Origin: Patescibacteria group bacterium
Lineage (GTDB): Bacteria; Patescibacteriota; Patescibacteriia; UBA11705; DATKZF01
Reading direction: 5' to 3'
Assembly (NCBI GenBank): GCA_049319825.1
Contig: JBMORT010000002.1
Span: 204,072 to 268,071, forward strand
Length of the DNA stretch: 64,000 bases
Shown here: positions 17,990 to 34,132 of the stretch, one piece after another
How positions within the stretch are numbered: position 1 is the stretch's first letter
Layout of the letters: each line of letters opens with the position of its first letter
Notes under the pieces: model-generated
Told to the model about the DNA's origin: nothing
What the model saw: the letters and a program-made list of their open reading frames with translations, nothing else
Database searches by the model: none
Translations under genes and position numbers: made by a program

Positions 17990-19555
17990 TTACGCATTGC
18001 CCGAATTACCCAGAATTTGTTTTTTGTTTTTTAATAAGAATTCAGCCGCCTCTTCCTTGGTGTAGATCCTGGCGGCCAGTTGCTCTTCCCGGACCATTTC
18101 CTTTGCTGCTTTGATCCACGGGCCGCCTTTTTTAATCATGAATACCTCCATTATTTCCATGCCGTCTAAAAGCTCGGCCGGCAGATGCTGCTGCTTTTCT
18201 CTAATGGCGTTGATTTTGCGGATTCTTTTGACCAGAGCATTATAATTATCCAGCGGCACAGATCCGTCAGGCCTAAGCGAGCATAACGAGTCGAGATAGA
18301 AAAGCATCAGCAGGCGATGACCTTTGGGACCCATGAAATATTTTTCAATGGTAGTATTTTTAATGGTGGCCGGGTTGGCGGAAACCGCGGTCATGTGCCT
18401 CTCTATTAAAAATTTGATCTGCTCGATTTGCTTTTTGGGAAATCTCAGCCGGCGTAGGATTGCATCGGCGATTTGCGCCCCGGCTTCATCATGACCGAAA
18501 AAGGTGATTTTCGCTTGTCCGTTTTTTTGGGTTTCTTTTCTGGTGGCGGGCTTGCCGATGTCATGAAGCAGCATGGCCATGACGAATTGCCCGTCAATTT
18601 TCGAGTCCGGAAATTGTTTTTTGAATTCCGGGGATTCAATCTTTCCGAGCATCAGCTTAGTATGTTCCCAGGTATCGCCTTCATAGTGGAATTCCGGCGG
18701 CTGCTCGCAGCCTTTTAGCGCCGACAATTCAGGCACGATCTGCTCGAAGACTCCTGATTTGTCAAAGAGGTCAAAGGCTCGGGTCGGATTGGCTTCCAGG
18801 GCCTTTAGCATTTCTTTTCTGATCGTATCTTCAGGCACGATTCGTTCTGTTTTGCCTTCGTTATTTTTCCTGGTGTCATTTAAATGCTTAGCGTTAGCAA
18901 TGATCGCCTGCCAAGTTTTCGGCTCGATTTCAAAGTCGAATTTGCAGGCGAAGCGGATGGCGCGCAATATTCTCGAATAGTCTTCTTTGAATCTTTCATT
19001 CGGATCGCCGACCGCGCGAATGATTTTATTTTCCAAATCCTTTTGCCCGCTGAAAGGATCGATCAGCTTGCCTTCGCGGACATCATAAGCCATGGCATTG
19101 ATAGTCAGATCGCGCCGGCCGAGATCTTTTTCGATCGGTAAATTGGGATCAGCCTGCACTTCAAAATCGCGGTAGCCGCCGGTGCCGGCAGCGTATTCCA
19201 CGCGCGGAAAAGCGATATCGATCGCTTCTTTGAGGCTTGAATCGGCGGGCATGAATTTATAAACGCCGAAATTTCTGCCGACCAGATCCAGGCTGCCTTT
19301 TTCCCGGGTCAAGGCGCTTTCTAATTCCTCTCGCGATATTTTTCTGAAAATAAAGTCATAATCCTTTGATTTCCCGGCTCCCAGCAGCGTGTCCCGAACA
19401 ATTCCGCCGACCAAATACAATTCCAACTGATCAAGCTCTTGATTTTCGATCAGGTCATCCAAAAAGCGCTTGATCGACGGCTCGGTTAAGATTTTTTTGC
19501 GGAGCTTATCTTCGGGCGTTTCTTTTTTGAAAAATATTTCTTTAAAAAATTTCAT
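17990..19555 (-). CDS. cca: CCA-adding tRNA nucleotidyltransferase with HD domain
   Basis: pol-beta NTase motif LVGGIVRD plus HD motif LLHDIGKP. Confidence 0.8.
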   Translation of the reverse strand: MKFFKEIFFKKETPEDKLRKKILTEPSIKRFLDDLIENQELDQLELYLVGGIVRDTLLGAGKSKDYDFIFRKISREELESALTREKGSLDLVGRNFGVYKFMPADSSLKEAIDIAFPRVEYAAGTGGYRDFEVQADPNLPIEKDLGRRDLTINAMAYDVREGKLIDPFSGQKDLENKIIRAVGDPNERFKEDYSRILRAIRFACKFDFEIEPKTWQAIIANAKHLNDTRKNNEGKTERIVPEDTIRKEMLKALEANPTRAFDLFDKSGVFEQIVPELSALKGCEQPPEFHYEGDTWEHTKLMLGKIESPEFKKQFPDSKIDGQFVMAMLLHDIGKPATRKETQKNGQAKITFFGHDEAGAQIADAILRRLRFPKKQIEQIKFLIERHMTAVSANPATIKNTTIEKYFMGPKGHRLLMLFYLDSLCSLRPDGSVPLDNYNALVKRIRKINAIREKQQHLPAELLDGMEIMEVFMIKKGGPWIKAAKEMVREEQLAARIYTKEEAAEFLLKNKKQILGNSGNA

Positions 19556-19561
19556 AAATTT

Positions 19562-19685
19562 TCCACCCCACTTTCAGTGGGCCTGTTTTTGAAGCCGACT
19601 GAAAGTCGGGCAGAAATTAAGTATTTCTACCCCACTTTTAGTGGACATTGTTATCTGAGTACACTGGAAGTCGGGCCGAAATTAT
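19562..19685. repeat. tandem ~62-bp duplicated unit carrying paired REP-like hairpins (CCCACTttcAGTGGG / CCGACTgaaAGTCGG)
   Basis: two diverged copies; each unit has two related short palindromes of form CCNACT-NNN-AGTNGG. Confidence 0.5.
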
Positions 19686-20620
19686 AATTTTCGCAAAAAA
19701 TTATTCAATTCTTCTTTTAAATCAATCTCATACTCCATCTCATTGCCCTGCAAATCCGTGAATTTCAAATAATATGATTCTAAAAACATGCGGCCGATGT
19801 CTGCCGGCTTGTATTGCTTGGATTTATATAATGGATCGCCGACCACCGGATGGCTGAGCGCGAACAGGTGTACTCTGATCTGGTGCGTGCGGCCGGTTTT
19901 CGGGCTGACATCGAGCAGCGAGTATTTGTTGTATTCTTTAATCACCTCGTATTGGGTTAGCGCTTCCCGGCCGAGGTCAGAGTTAAACGGATGGGCGGCC
20001 ATGGCGCCTTTATTCGAGCTGCGGCCGATGCGAAAAGCGATTGAGTCTTCTTTGGTGTCCAGTTTGCCGTAGATGAGCGCGTAATATTTTTTGGCAATGA
20101 GCCGGTCCTGAAATTGTTTTTTGAAATAATGAAATGCTGCCTGCGTTTTCGGAATAATCATCAGTCCCGATGTTTCTTTATCGAGGCGATGGACTATCGC
20201 CGGCCTGCTCGGATCGTCGCCGATATTTTTTAATTTAGGAAATTTTTTCATCAGCCAGTCGACCAATGTTTTCTCTTGACTCGATTCGGTGGGATGAACC
20301 AAAAGGTCAGCCGGTTTATTGATGATCAAATAATCGTCTTTATCGTCAATGATTTCAATTTTTTTAAAAAGCTCTTTGCTCATGTCTTTTTGAAAAACCT
20401 TTTTAACCTTGCTGATTGCTTTTTTTACTTTTTCTTCTTTGAATTCGACATTATCTCCGGTTTTTAAAAATTGATGCACAGCTGGCTTTTTGCCATTAAC
20501 CAAAACCAGGCCGGATTGAATTTTTTTCTGAATCTGACTGCGCGTGACTTCAGGCAGCGTTTCATTTAAAAATTTATCCAGCCGCCATTTATTGAATTGT
20601 TCTGATACTTTGTATTTCAT
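19682..20620 (-). CDS. rluD: RluA-family 23S rRNA pseudouridine synthase (RluD-like) with N-terminal S4 domain
   Basis: HRLDKETSGLMI catalytic motif; S4-like N-terminus. Confidence 0.85.
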   Translation of the reverse strand: MKYKVSEQFNKWRLDKFLNETLPEVTRSQIQKKIQSGLVLVNGKKPAVHQFLKTGDNVEFKEEKVKKAISKVKKVFQKDMSKELFKKIEIIDDKDDYLIINKPADLLVHPTESSQEKTLVDWLMKKFPKLKNIGDDPSRPAIVHRLDKETSGLMIIPKTQAAFHYFKKQFQDRLIAKKYYALIYGKLDTKEDSIAFRIGRSSNKGAMAAHPFNSDLGREALTQYEVIKEYNKYSLLDVSPKTGRTHQIRVHLFALSHPVVGDPLYKSKQYKPADIGRMFLESYYLKFTDLQGNEMEYEIDLKEELNNFLRKL

Positions 20621-24320: not shown

Positions 24321-25133
24321 ATGGAAACCAAAGCGGAACAAATCAAACTAATCAGCGAGCTGAGAAAAGCCGGATTAAAGCAAAAAGAAGCGGAAATTTA
24401 TGCCGCGCTTTTGGAATTGGGCGGCGCTTATCCTTCAAAAATAGCAGAATACACGAAATTAAACCGAAGCACTGTATATAAAATTTTGGAGGAGTTATCT
24501 ATCAAAGGTTTAGTATCAGAGGTTCAAAAGGGGAAAAAGCTATATTATCAGATTGAAAAGCCGGATAAATTGGTTCGCTTCGCAAAAGAGCAAATTAAAT
24601 TAGCGGAAAACAGATTGGAAAACGCGGAAAAAATATTGCCTGATATTGAAGGTTTATTTACTCTAACGCCGAATAAACCCAAAGTCAGTTTTTATGAAGA
24701 ACTTGACGGAGTTTTAAAAGTGTATGCGGATCATGTTGATGTCAAGGAATCATATGAACAGCTGGCATTTTCAAACACAGCCGGGGTCATTGAATTCATG
24801 CCATTAAAATTTAGAGAAGATTATGTAAAGAAAAAAGAGAAAATTTCCATCCCTTCCAGAGGAATTGTTCCTGACACGGAAAAGGATATTGATTATAACA
24901 AAACCGTATATAGAAATGTTAATAAAGGAATATGGCCGAAGTTGCGCTGGATACCGGCTAAAATGTTTCCCTATAAAGGTGAAATTACCATTTATGAAAA
25001 TAATAAAGTCTCTTTGGTTAATTTCAGCGAGCCGACGATGATTGGGGTAATTATTGAAGATAAAGACATCCACGACATGATGGCCATGATTTTCGAGCTA
25101 GCCTGGGCCGGAGCGAAGGAATTTGGAAATTAA
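24321..25133 (+). CDS. TrmB-family winged-helix transcriptional regulator
   Basis: N-terminal TrmB-type wHTH (KEAEIYAALLELGGAYPSKIAEYTKLNRSTVYKILEEL..KGLV). Confidence 0.7.
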   Translation: METKAEQIKLISELRKAGLKQKEAEIYAALLELGGAYPSKIAEYTKLNRSTVYKILEELSIKGLVSEVQKGKKLYYQIEKPDKLVRFAKEQIKLAENRLENAEKILPDIEGLFTLTPNKPKVSFYEELDGVLKVYADHVDVKESYEQLAFSNTAGVIEFMPLKFREDYVKKKEKISIPSRGIVPDTEKDIDYNKTVYRNVNKGIWPKLRWIPAKMFPYKGEITIYENNKVSLVNFSEPTMIGVIIEDKDIHDMMAMIFELAWAGAKEFGN

Positions 25134-32514: not shown

Positions 32515-32550
32515 AGGCAGTAGGCAAGAGGCAATAGGCAGTAGGTAAAT

Positions 32551-32572
32551 CGGCGCACGGCGCCGGTTTTTT
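32551..32572 (+). terminator. terminator CGGCGC-acg-GCGCCG + T6
   Basis: follows ATP-grasp gene and AGGCRAT heptamer array. Confidence 0.55.
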
Positions 32573-32574
32573 AA

Positions 32575-32603
32575 TTGACAGAATTCAGGTATTGATTTAA
32601 TAT
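32575..32603 (+). promoter_or_regulatory. sigma70-type promoter TTGACA-17-TAATAT
   Basis: consensus -35, good -10, 40 nt upstream of AGGAGG RBS. Confidence 0.5.
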
Positions 32604-32642
32604 GAAGTGTTGTTGTCGGCCGAGCAAAAAAGGAGGAGAGAT

Positions 32643-33278
32643 TTGGCAATCAACGGCTATAAAAAAATCGAAGCCCGGGTGGAAAGAATCAAAGAGTGGT
32701 TCAGGCTTCACGGCTTTGAAATTGAGGTTCCTTTTCCGAGGAGCGAAAACGGATTTCAAATCGAGATTCCTTTTCCGGGGATTAAAAGCCAATTTCAATC
32801 TTTCAATGCCCAATACGCGTTGAGACAAGAGAATGGCTGGGAGCTTTTTTACCGGCCGTCGAGCAGGGAAGTTTCGTATTTCGAATTTTTGGCGGAAGTT
32901 GGACAGAAATTTCATTGGACAACGAGAATCGGTGTTCGAAAAAGCATCAATTGGACATGGACGCAAAGCGGCTATTGGTTCTGGGCGCAAATTTGTCCTG
33001 CCGCGCCCGTTTTTGGCAAATGCGAAGACGTGGTGCCGGCGCGTTGCCAGGAAAATCAGCGGCCGCCGAGCATTGAAGAATATTTGCTGATGTATCATTT
33101 GCACCGATGCGATACTGGCCGCAAGCTGGATCACAATCCCGCGGTTTGGCTGACGACCAAGCTCCGCGGACACGCGCTGAGCGCGCTCGGCGATTGCGGC
33201 GGCATCAATGTCGGCATTGCCGACAATTTCACGCCCAACCCCGGCTGTGGCTTGCGCTTGGTGAAAGTGATCGGTTGA
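32643..33278 (+). CDS. hypothetical Trp-rich protein
   Basis: TTG start 6 nt after AGGAGG; internal repeat GF(E/Q)IE(V/I)PFP; minus-strand 260-aa ORF over same region rejected. Confidence 0.45.
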   Translation: MAINGYKKIEARVERIKEWFRLHGFEIEVPFPRSENGFQIEIPFPGIKSQFQSFNAQYALRQENGWELFYRPSSREVSYFEFLAEVGQKFHWTTRIGVRKSINWTWTQSGYWFWAQICPAAPVFGKCEDVVPARCQENQRPPSIEEYLLMYHLHRCDTGRKLDHNPAVWLTTKLRGHALSALGDCGGINVGIADNFTPNPGCGLRLVKVIG

Positions 33279-33445
33279 TTTTACCCTGTTTTCATAAAGC
33301 GGGGTTTTTTGTTTTGTCGAAGTGGCCGGACAAAAATTAATTGATATTCGCAAAGAAATAGTGTGATTTTTCGCGTGTTGTCGAATGTGGAAAACATTTT
33401 ATTCGATTTTTTGATACCCCTCGGGTTATGATGAAAATATAATTT

Positions 33446-33979
33446 ATGATTTATAAAGAATCAAAACAATATCGTTTACCCGGTTATAATTACGCCAATG
33501 ATGGATTTTATTTTGTGACGATTTGCGCCCAGAACATGCGAATGTTTTTTGGGAACGTTGTCAACGGCCAAATGATTTTGTCAAAAATCGGAAAAATCGC
33601 CAATCAATATTGGCTCGAAATTCCCAAACATTTTCCGCATGCGCGGTTGCATGAATACATTGTTATGCCGCACCATGTCCATGGAATTTTGGAGTTGCGA
33701 ACCCGTGTTGTTGTAGGAACGCGCCATGGCGCGTTCTTACAACAAAATTCCATGGGCATGCATCCATTGGTCAGGAATTCGTTGTCATCAATCCTCAACC
33801 ATTTCAAGGGGGCAGTGAAAAAATGGTGCAATCGAAACAATCATGGAAATTTTGCCTGGATGTCACGATTTCGCGATACAGTTATTTTGCATGAAAACGC
33901 ATTATACAACTTCCGCAAATACATCATTAACAACCCGTCAAATTGGGAATTGAAGAAAAACAATCCTGATTTGATGTAA
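33446..33979 (+). CDS. REP-associated tyrosine transposase (RAYT) / IS200-like HUH Y1 transposase
   Basis: YR.PG..YFVT N-terminus, HUH motif PHHVHGIL, C-terminal RFRD..I.....Y....YI.NNP, matching E. coli RayT pattern. Confidence 0.7.
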   Translation: MIYKESKQYRLPGYNYANDGFYFVTICAQNMRMFFGNVVNGQMILSKIGKIANQYWLEIPKHFPHARLHEYIVMPHHVHGILELRTRVVVGTRHGAFLQQNSMGMHPLVRNSLSSILNHFKGAVKKWCNRNNHGNFAWMSRFRDTVILHENALYNFRKYIINNPSNWELKKNNPDLM

Positions 33980-33995
33980 TATAATATCAAAATTC

Positions 33996-34019
33996 ATCGC
34001 GCTTGCCGCGATTTTTTTT
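33996..34019 (+). terminator. terminator ATCGCG-cttgc-CGCGAT + T8
   Basis: follows RAYT stop. Confidence 0.55.
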
Positions 34020-34132
34020 ATTTTTGAAGAATGAATCAGGGGTGCGTCAATATATTTGAAAAACCGGTGCCGATGCTGTATAATTATTGTAATAATTATT
34101 GATATTATTAATTATTTTTTATTTAAAAAAAT

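Follow-up and report, generated by a model that had tools for sequence, protein, structure and literature searches.

In Pseudomonas, Enterobacteria and Neisseria, repetitive extragenic palindromes (REPs) are known to occur as REPINs, doublets of REPs that form hairpins (Bertels and Rainey; PMC3116915, PMC3337134, 10.1101/2021.07.10.451892), and REPs carry a conserved terminal tetranucleotide, GTAG or CGTC (PMC3733652). We analysed a stretch of 64,000 nt (hereafter, the window) from a Patescibacteria group bacterium, a member of the Candidate Phyla Radiation (CPR; assembly GCA_049319825.1, contig JBMORT010000002.1, positions 204,072 to 268,071), in which an original prediction had placed a cluster of REP-like hairpins between an rluD-like gene and cca. 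The genomes of CPR/Patescibacteria are tiny, tightly packed and generally seen as repeat-poor, and in the literature we found no description of REP-, REPIN- or MITE-like (miniature inverted-repeat transposable element) families in them. Here we show that the repeated module of this cluster is part of a low-copy family of TTTC-tagged hairpins, scattered through Patescibacteria and not described before. On balance, we favour reading the cluster as an old, retained REPIN-like element of two tandem doublets, which would act as an RNA structure between the rluD and cca cistrons. It has no detectable tie to the RAYT-like gene (related to REP-associated tyrosine transposases) that lies 14 kb away.

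The gap between rluD and cca measures 126 bp (19556..19681), and both flanking genes lie on the minus strand; gmk begins 6 nt past cca. The features of the locus are listed below in the order in which they would be transcribed. Scores in bits are those of the covariance model R1, which was built on an alignment of 17 arms (A3), also the basis of the covariation test described further below; L003 and L006 are the same locus in two relatives.

19682..20620, minus strand: rluD-like upstream gene, encoding an RluD/RluA-family pseudouridine synthase (PF00849 PseudoU_synth_2, E = 1.6e-31, and an S4 domain)
19682..19684, minus strand: stop codon TAA of the rluD-like gene, abutting the TTTC tag of arm 1L (junction TAATTTC, likewise in L003 and L006)
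19556..19681, minus strand (read on the transcribed strand): the whole element, two tandem inverted doublets filling the rluD-cca gap
19659..19681, minus strand: arm 1L (c4), TTTCGGCCCGACTTCCAGTGTAC, G-type, 23 nt, mini-stem decayed, 29.2 bits
19647..19658, minus strand: spacer of doublet 1, 12 nt, the loop of long hairpin 1
19624..19646, plus strand: arm 1R (c3), TTTCTACCCCACTTTTAGTGGAC, C-type, 5-bp mini-stem (19632-19644), 39.9 bits
19617..19623, minus strand: linker between the doublets, 7 nt, the loop of an alternative 1R:2L pairing (-25.0 kcal/mol)
19594..19616, minus strand: arm 2L (c2), TTTCTGCCCGACTTTCAGTCGGC, G-type, perfect 6-bp mini-stem, 44 bits
19583..19593, minus strand: spacer of doublet 2, 11 nt, of which the first 3 nt (TTC) alone are common to L003
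19560..19582, plus strand: arm 2R (c1), TTTCCACCCCACTTTCAGTGGGC, C-type, perfect 6-bp mini-stem, 39.6 bits
19563..19569, minus strand: putative Shine-Dalgarno (SD) sequence of cca, GGGGUGG, read from the sequence, 7 nt upstream of the AUG
19553..19555, minus strand: start codon ATG of cca
17990..19555, minus strand: downstream gene cca, encoding the CCA-adding tRNA nucleotidyltransferase (PolyA_pol head, RNA-binding and HD domains)

Each module of ~23 nt consists of a TTTC tag, 2 nt and a 15-bp palindrome, CCSACT-N3-AGTSGG, and its orientation alternates across the four copies. On the transcribed strand the order is TAA (stop)-1L (c4)-12 nt-1R (c3 complement)-7 nt-2L (c2)-11 nt-2R (c1 complement)-AUUU-AUG (cca). 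The arm subtypes alternate too, G-type (CCGACT..AGTCGG) with C-type (CCCACT..AGTGGG), over linkers of 12, 7 and 11 nt. The original prediction had described two diverged direct repeats of ~62 bp holding four related hairpins. Indeed, a repeat search of the gap returned direct-repeat families of 22 nt (91% identity) and 21 nt (90% identity) at a spacing of 64-65 nt, together with inverted pairs of 23 nt (83%) and 20 nt (85%). Two diverged units are therefore present, but they are better described as a tandem pair of inverted doublets; Tandem Repeats Finder gave no report for the element, because there are just two diverged copies. Likewise there are four modules, of which only two hold the exact palindrome, while the stem of c3 is 5 bp long and that of c4 is lost. 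The repetition is far beyond chance: the palindrome pattern CCNACTNNNAGTNGG has two exact matches (19567-19581 and 19595-19609) against 0.00 expected in shuffles, and the 21-nt consensus, with up to three mismatches, has three in the window, all at this locus, against the same expectation of 0.00.

The architecture resembles that of REPINs and of the bacterial interspersed mosaic elements (BIMEs) of Escherichia coli. Short imperfect palindromes (23-nt modules with 6-7 bp stems), an extragenic site and an alternating cluster of two subtypes, as in REPs and BIMEs, are all found here, and so is the REPIN arrangement of an inverted doublet with conserved arms and a variable spacer. As in REPINs, two inverted short modules, each with a palindrome of ~14-15 bp, stand on either side of the spacer, each arm can form a hairpin by itself or join its partner in a single long one, and the element is extragenic, vertically inherited and long-lived. 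As in BIMEs, which are mosaics of Y and Z REPs, two subtypes follow each other in alternating orientation and in tandem, with long (11-12 nt) and short (7 nt) linkers alternating. A conserved terminal tetranucleotide beside the stem, and a position between co-directional genes, are shared with BIMEs and REPs alike. Unlike REPINs, which number tens to hundreds per genome, the element occupies one locus in 64 kb, without a cognate RAYT flanked by copies; its host is a ~1-Mb CPR organism outside the clades of the described REPIN-RAYT systems, and among lineages with saturated synonymous sites it has been conserved at a single orthologous position. It differs from the GTAG- and CGTC-tagged REPs (PMC3733652) in its TTTC tag and very low copy number, and from BIMEs in that its 3′ arm also serves the downstream gene as a ribosome-binding site. 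Binding of integration host factor, gyrase or Pol I is a feature of the E. coli BIMEs; the TTTC element is known here from sequence alone.

Evidence for an old, retained element comes from the same locus in relatives. Loci reached via Cca homologues share the syntenic order rluD-cca-gmk-rplS-response regulator-uvrA, and in three lineages (the window, L003 and L006) the element lies between rluD and cca, straight after the rluD stop codon. In L003 and L004 (Cca 68% identical) one doublet runs from the rluD stop codon to the cca start; the left arm of L003 is identical to c2 within a 29/29-nt match, and the 3′ part of its right arm equals c1 over 16/16 nt. L006 (Cca 67-68% identical) has a decayed doublet past the stop codon, ~110 nt from cca. 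L093 (Cca 61% identical), whose contig starts inside the element, carries two tandem doublets directly upstream of cca, and its first unit shares with that of the window the sequence ACTAAAA...GGGGTAGAAAT, so that the duplication is older than the split of the two lineages. No element was found in the rluD-cca gap of L007 or L094 (Cca 57% and 54% identical). The original prediction had set a dispersed repeat against a region simply conserved in related genomes, and conservation is largely what we see, at the syntenic rluD-cca position in three lineages and before cca in a fourth.

The conservation extends to the primary sequence. Comparing the window with L003, we found only 44-56% identity at the third positions of identical four-fold codons, which indicates that neutral sites are near saturation. 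All 45 arm positions are nevertheless identical, and the spacer is common in its first 3 nt only. Identical arms amid near-saturated neutral sites argue for a strong constraint on the sequence itself, beyond pairing. For the lineage of the window we thus lean, if only slightly, towards a single old copy past the rluD stop codon that is kept by selection, and not an active, abundant REP population.

Several other features were seen at these loci. A 29-nt GC-rich hairpin, CCCGCCTTCGCTAACGCTACGGCGGACAA, sits exactly in the loop of the right-arm mini-hairpin of L003 (9947-9975), with equivalents in L004, L005 and L066, and makes the long hairpin of L003 branched. In L007 (9092-9988) and L094 (9051-9947) the rluD-cca gap is filled by an open reading frame (ORF) of 298 aa without a Pfam match. 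L003 further has a small gene of the bAvd/23S_rRNA_IVP type (19782-20150) between pyruvate:ferredoxin oxidoreductase genes, with no counterpart among the genes called on L001, a 22.7-kb Logan contig of the window organism that carries the identical element.

We analysed the predicted folding of the element on both strands. The sense-strand RNA folds into two long imperfect hairpins with a minimum free energy of -54.8 kcal/mol (z = -6.9; none of 200 shuffles was as stable). For the antisense strand the value is -46 kcal/mol (z = -5.05), the sense fold being more stable because U.G pairs arise in the sense RNA only. By itself, doublet 2 folds at -33 to -34 kcal/mol and doublet 1 at -19 to -21; individual arms give -5.6 to -8.5 kcal/mol, and c4 gives 0.0. 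In the alignment A3, 79.8% of the cells of the 7-bp mini-hairpin are paired, against 17.6-36.5% in slid controls. Complementarity is kept through changes on both sides of the stem: pair 14-24 is CG in eight arms and GC in six, and pair 13-25 is CG in 11, UA in two, AU in one and GU in one. The covariation score was 0.238, as compared with 0.092 ± 0.024 in shuffles (0 of 500 reaching it) and at most 0.072 in the slid controls. The slid controls are the fairer comparison, since the relatedness of the arm sequences makes the shuffles exaggerate significance. Coordinated changes of both half-sites that preserve complementarity point to a folded single strand, RNA or single-stranded DNA, and argue against a double-stranded operator. 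In addition, T6, T7 and C8 of the tag are invariant across the 17 arms, the ACTTT.AGT core is near-invariant and all arm loops read C-U-NNN-A-G. To judge from these sequences, the invariant tag and near-invariant core imply sequence-specific recognition by some partner.

How could such an element act in the cell? Because the two genes share the minus strand and little DNA separates them, we presume that it is transcribed within an rluD-cca message, the sense RNA of which would fold into the two long imperfect stem-loops. On the sense strand, the complement of c1 reads GCCCACUGAAAGUGGGGUGGAAA-AUUU-AUG, so that the 3′ arm contains the putative SD sequence. GGGGUGG can pair with the anti-SD at the 3′ end of 16S rRNA over seven pairs, including two G.U pairs. 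In the predicted fold of long hairpin 2, however, it is fully paired with UUUCUGCCC of arm 2L, and the U.G and G.U pairs at the SD exist in the sense RNA only. The predicted cost of opening cca from -18 to +3 is 22.5 kcal/mol. None of the other window ORFs of 150 aa or more reaches this value (50 ORFs in all; median 4.8, mean 6.1, standard deviation 4.0, next highest 15.1 kcal/mol). L003 has the same arrangement of the SD within an arm, with an opening cost of 20.1 kcal/mol. With the SD buried in the 2L:2R helix, independent loading of ribosomes on cca would be strongly hindered, and the cca-proximal stem-loop may thus throttle initiation. By analogy with REP hairpins of E. coli, the stem-loops may also protect the upstream rluD message against 3′ exonucleases. 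Protection of mRNA by REP hairpins, and stems that sequester the SD, are known in other bacteria, and REPs between co-directional genes are known to stabilise the upstream mRNA.

As in intercistronic hairpins that sequester the SD, the predicted helix pairs the downstream SD with a segment straight after the upstream stop codon, most clearly in L003, and the predicted opening cost is ~20 kcal/mol, the cca SD of the window lying in a helix of -33 kcal/mol. Unlike those hairpins, this one is built from a repeat module that is found elsewhere, also in the other orientation. It also differs from coupling devices, since placing a ribosome at the rluD stop codon in the model lowers the opening cost by just half. 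We considered a coupling relay, in which 1L:1R plus 2L:2R would switch to 1R:2L, and kept it as a possibility only: with arm 1L blocked, the cost of opening the SD fell from 18.7 to ~9-10 kcal/mol, yet 2L:2R was still ~5 kcal/mol better. Translational coupling through a ribosome at the rluD stop is thus possible, but is not supported by the modelling.

Next to its conservation, the element is distinguished by its low copy number. The covariance model R1, run with filters off, found the four arms only in the window (29-44 bits) and no other copy; the next match (24840-24869, 18 bits, E ~0.1) was rejected, as it lies within an ORF and has no hairpin. A hairpin scan of the window for ACT-N2-4-AGT with at least three flanking pairs returned this locus and one AT-rich chance site, and there were no extra copies in ~95 kb of distinct sequence from the relatives L003, L006, L007, L094 and L095. 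For a wider census we used the pattern TTTCNNCCCSACTTTYAGTSG (35 bits), which matches three of the four window arms and about one-third of the 18 known arms; a further pattern form of the module for genome scanning is TTTCNNCCSNACTTNNAGT. The census pattern gave no match in viral contigs, 40 stretches in metagenome contigs of the Joint Genome Institute (JGI) and 42 stretches in 185,579 species-representative genomes, a collection without the source genome and without GCA_035528115.1, where a hand estimate from information content puts the chance expectation at ~35. Most matches were chance occurrences in conserved coding genes (Flavobacterium, Microcoleus), a longer repeat of Maridesulfovibrio or unrelated GC-rich contigs. 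The high copy number typical of REPs and BIMEs was seen in none of the 185,579 species representatives. In the closest relative, whose contig Ga0307378_10000001 spans 762,837 bp, exactly one stretch matched, the orthologous one (L066); with a pattern that catches about one-third of arms, zero additional matches limits further copies on this contig to a handful. The further copies that the original prediction had expected in a genome-wide search for the palindrome were thus absent both from the rest of the window and, as exact matches, from that contig. Nor does the element belong to a catalogued class. Rfam 15 at gathering thresholds gave three tRNAs only for the window and one unrelated tmRNA only for six related loci, and at E up to 10 returned for the element region sub-threshold hairpin noise, nothing near a gathering threshold. 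ARAGORN placed no tRNA or tmRNA near the element, and blastn against phage and plasmid sequences gave no match to it.

Near-identical arms do occur at non-orthologous loci of distant Patescibacteria, which makes the module a family. Two such loci are on Ga0315547 contigs from a Parcubacteria-type organism (UvrB relatives labelled Moranbacteria or Parcubacteria; UvrA ~51% identical to that of the window). One, L073, lies in the tsaD-argS gap and matches c2 and its flanks at 25 of 26 nt; the other, L074/L096, has two tandem units between uvrB and a small ORF followed by yjbQ. In addition, a single intergenic arm, AAATTTCTGCCCCACTTTCAGTGGGTTCAAA, is present in a Kuenenbacteria genome (L032). No further copies were found in the 22 kb around uvrB, so copy number is low there too. 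In L098, whose UvrB is 88% identical to that of L096, the small ORF is kept, the ~110-130-nt cluster is absent and TAGAAA (TTTCTA) stands at the junction. This is a presence/absence difference, which can be read as insertion or as deletion. The family shows signs of past gain or loss, and we infer a mobile origin of the element. Palindrome-associated transposable elements (PATEs), which derive from IS200/IS605 with their Y1 transposases, offer a parallel: they too have hairpins beside a conserved tetranucleotide, a possible cleavage or target site, and the TAGAAA (TTTCTA) at the L098 empty site is reminiscent of this. Unlike in PATEs, the arms are inverted and not direct, no transposase is associated, and the difference at uvrB may be either an insertion or a deletion.

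The same contigs contain further repeats. A second hairpin repeat of the Ga0315547 contigs, CTGGAGTA-GCGGACTTTAGTCCGC-GATCG, occurs at the following sites.

L073 3169-3184, 3572-3587, 10246-10261 and 10468-10483: second hairpin repeat
L074 4131-4146 (= L096 12027-12042): second hairpin repeat

Two of its copies lie within argS and are translated in frame as ATFRSRS(D/K)..LK.ATP peptide inserts, and TsaD has a similar insert; this recalls the Rickettsia palindromic elements, which insert into genes. As compared with L098 (9900-10010), L096 (9330-9910) has an extra basic ORF of 136 aa between trkA and uvrB, bracketed by a duplicated terminator, AGCCGCATCTCAAAAAGATGCGGCTTTTT, with a weak single TTTC-tagged hairpin, TTTCTAACTGACTTTAGTCAGG, upstream; by its sequence, this region looks like a small inserted cassette. 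A dispersed repeat on GC-rich metagenome contigs of a different organism shares the tagged core of the module, TTTCGCCCCCACTTTTAGTGGGGGG, and continues into a conserved GC-rich stretch, CGCCCGCCGGCGCGCCCACTC.

L068 5930-6010, 6870-6985 and 7135-7175; also L052, L054, L080 and L085-L087: dispersed GC-rich repeat

The three L068 copies fall within 1.2 kb, at least two of them flanking one gene, and at two of the three sites two to three iteron-like direct copies of GTTTCGCCCCCAC precede the repeat. Finally, a Bacteroidales contig from a metagenome-assembled genome (L043 349-2106) has five regularly spaced copies of CCCGACTTTTAGTCGGGATGCTCTG, 378-533 nt apart, with the hairpin core in common.

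Several observations weigh against an old REPIN-like element that works as an intercistronic RNA structure. The doublets of L073 and L096 stand in the opposite orientation to transcription from that of the window, and such a flip at non-orthologous loci speaks for a DNA-level element more than for a strand-specific RNA signal. Masking of the SD is not conserved, as the decayed doublet of L006 lies ~110 nt from cca and the cca-proximal arm of L093 is degenerate. Each doublet pairs unlike arm types, so that the long hairpin always has symmetric G.G and C.C mismatches while the mini-hairpins are perfect; this suggests selection on the mini-hairpins, and the long SD-masking helix may be a by-product. 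The identity of loop and tag across distant lineages would, in turn, imply a trans-acting partner. The intercistronic role itself is a prediction from modelled folds and sequence comparison, and the count for the source genome covers 64 kb, of a genome in which the contig alone measures 384,691 bp; there may be more copies.

Part of this evidence could also be read as a non-mobile cis-regulatory RNA motif, the site of a conserved RNA-binding protein or RNase of Patescibacteria, beside mostly tRNA-related genes (rluD/cca, tsaD/argS). The strong conservation of primary sequence across distant lineages, including loop and tag, the syntenically stable position and the low copy number everywhere are consistent with such a motif, as are the C-U-NNN-A-G loops, which follow the pattern of an anticodon loop. 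A by-eye comparison with the tRNA T-arm and rRNA helix 69 gave no fit, and the anticodon-loop pattern itself fits weakly. However, both orientations occur in one transcript and the orientation flips between loci, as a result of which the RNA loops differ (UUUC versus GAAA). Moreover, the uvrB-yjbQ locus has no tRNA connection, a close relative lacks the element there, copies decay piecemeal and no Rfam family corresponds to them. We consider this possible but somewhat unlikely.

A related proposal is that the TTTC hairpin is the substrate of a trans-acting factor of Patescibacteria. It might be a low-copy REPIN-like replicator co-opted as a translational gate for cca, which would be the first in CPR genomes and would be served by something other than a canonical REP-flanked RAYT. 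Alternatively, it might be an anticodon-loop-like decoy, whose C-U-NNN-A-G loop would let tRNA-handling enzymes encoded next to it (RluD/Cca, TsaD/ArgRS) sense or regulate their own messages. Taking the two versions together, we rate the proposal as unlikely.

The original prediction had interpreted the cluster as a REP/BIME family mobilised by a RAYT-type transposase encoded at 33446..33979. An active family mobilised or maintained by this Y1 enzyme would agree with the BIME/REPIN-like architecture, with the conserved 5′ tetranucleotide beside a covarying hairpin, as in GTAG-tagged REPs (PMC3733652), and with family members at different loci in other CPR genomes plus one presence/absence difference. 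A Y1/HUH relative is indeed encoded in the window. The translation of ORF 33446..33979 shows an HUH-like HHVH motif and late tyrosines, and among its 40 detectable homologues some carry PF01797 and one is named RayT by JGI. The protein is, however, only a distant RAYT/IS200-like relative: it scores 41 bits (E = 1.5e-10) against NCBIfam NF047646 (REP_Tyr_transpos), for which the cutoff is 80, and has no match in Pfam.

Gene and element also do not keep company. In the window, R1 found no TTTC module in the flanks of 33446..33979, which have terminator-like hairpins only, and the module does not flank the homologues in L099-L103 either. The gene sits in a 1.6-kb gap between PPDK_N and aspS (32515-34132), whose counterparts measure 188 nt (L003) and 192 nt (L102). 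In L003 the element is thus retained, with no RAYT-like gene at the syntenic site. None of the 40 detectable homologues was placed on contigs of the L003 genome by a word-index search of limited sensitivity. Two ORFs of L003, of 177 and 180 aa, were considered as a RAYT beside the element and proved unrelated to the RAYT-like protein of the window. Conversely, the L007 genome has a RAYT-like homologue on the same contig in the European Nucleotide Archive, yet no element in its rluD-cca gap. There is also no second locus in the 64 kb, one exact match on the 762-kb contig of the relative, and no high-copy genome among the species representatives. The architecture and the existence of a family were therefore correctly anticipated, whereas copy number, tag and the tie to the RAYT were not. 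With copies flanking the gene absent and the gene missing at the L003 site where the element is kept, we consider an active family moved by this enzyme quite improbable.

The RAYT-like gene has a hairpin of its own. Just past the HUH motif it holds a nested imperfect palindrome of ~87 nt (window 33674-33760, plus strand), the GTAG-tagged core of which reads TTGTAGGAACGCGCCA followed by TGGCGCGTTCTTACAA and differs in sequence from the TTTC module. The palindrome recurs in a 76%-identical homologue and, differing in sequence, in a more remote homologue (L099 1400-1484, L102 5411-5488), and from these sequences appears to be kept by compensatory change. It may be a cognate or autoregulatory hairpin of the Y1 enzyme and, judged by sequence, would be a better candidate than the TTTC module for any cognate hairpin of this enzyme. 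The PPDK_N-aspS gap also contains two long, mutually antisense ORFs (32571..33353, minus strand; 32607..33278, plus strand) without a significant Pfam match, and the extra DNA in it looks, on sequence comparison, like a lineage-specific insertion.

Two conventional explanations fare worse. To four double-stranded DNA operators (palindromes of 15-17 bp) for a dimeric transcription factor controlling a cca promoter we give very little credence. The palindromic sites are 28-36 bp apart and a sigma-70-like match (TTGAAT, 16 nt, TATAAT) overlaps the rluD stop codon, but the half-sites co-change (CG to GC, CG to UA) with the signature of a folded single strand. A promoter in the 3′ end of rluD was itself rejected, as the single match equals the shuffle mean (1.0) and is not conserved in L003 or L006. 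Ordinary intrinsic terminators ending rluD transcription seem just as hard to credit. The GC-rich hairpins do lie just past the stop codon and related copies in L062/L072 and L073 precede U-tracts, but no sense-strand U-tract follows any of the four hairpins, both terminator-like matches in the element (19567-19581 and 19632-19644) are on the antisense (plus) strand, and the last hairpin, which includes the cca SD, stops 4 nt short of the cca start codon.

An old, retained REPIN-like element with a probable role in the rluD-cca message would have implications beyond this locus. For annotation, it is a warning that a REP-like shape and a RAYT-like ORF in one window do not amount to a REP-RAYT system. 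Should there be a dedicated binding protein, the module would be a defined 23-nt bait with which to find it. A module that is conserved to the base, yet present at one or a few loci per genome, stands between REPIN populations, whether selfish or mutualist, and single-copy regulatory RNA structures. And if the masking of the SD is real, this would be a clear case of a repeat-derived element recruited to determine how strongly an essential tRNA-maturation enzyme is expressed.

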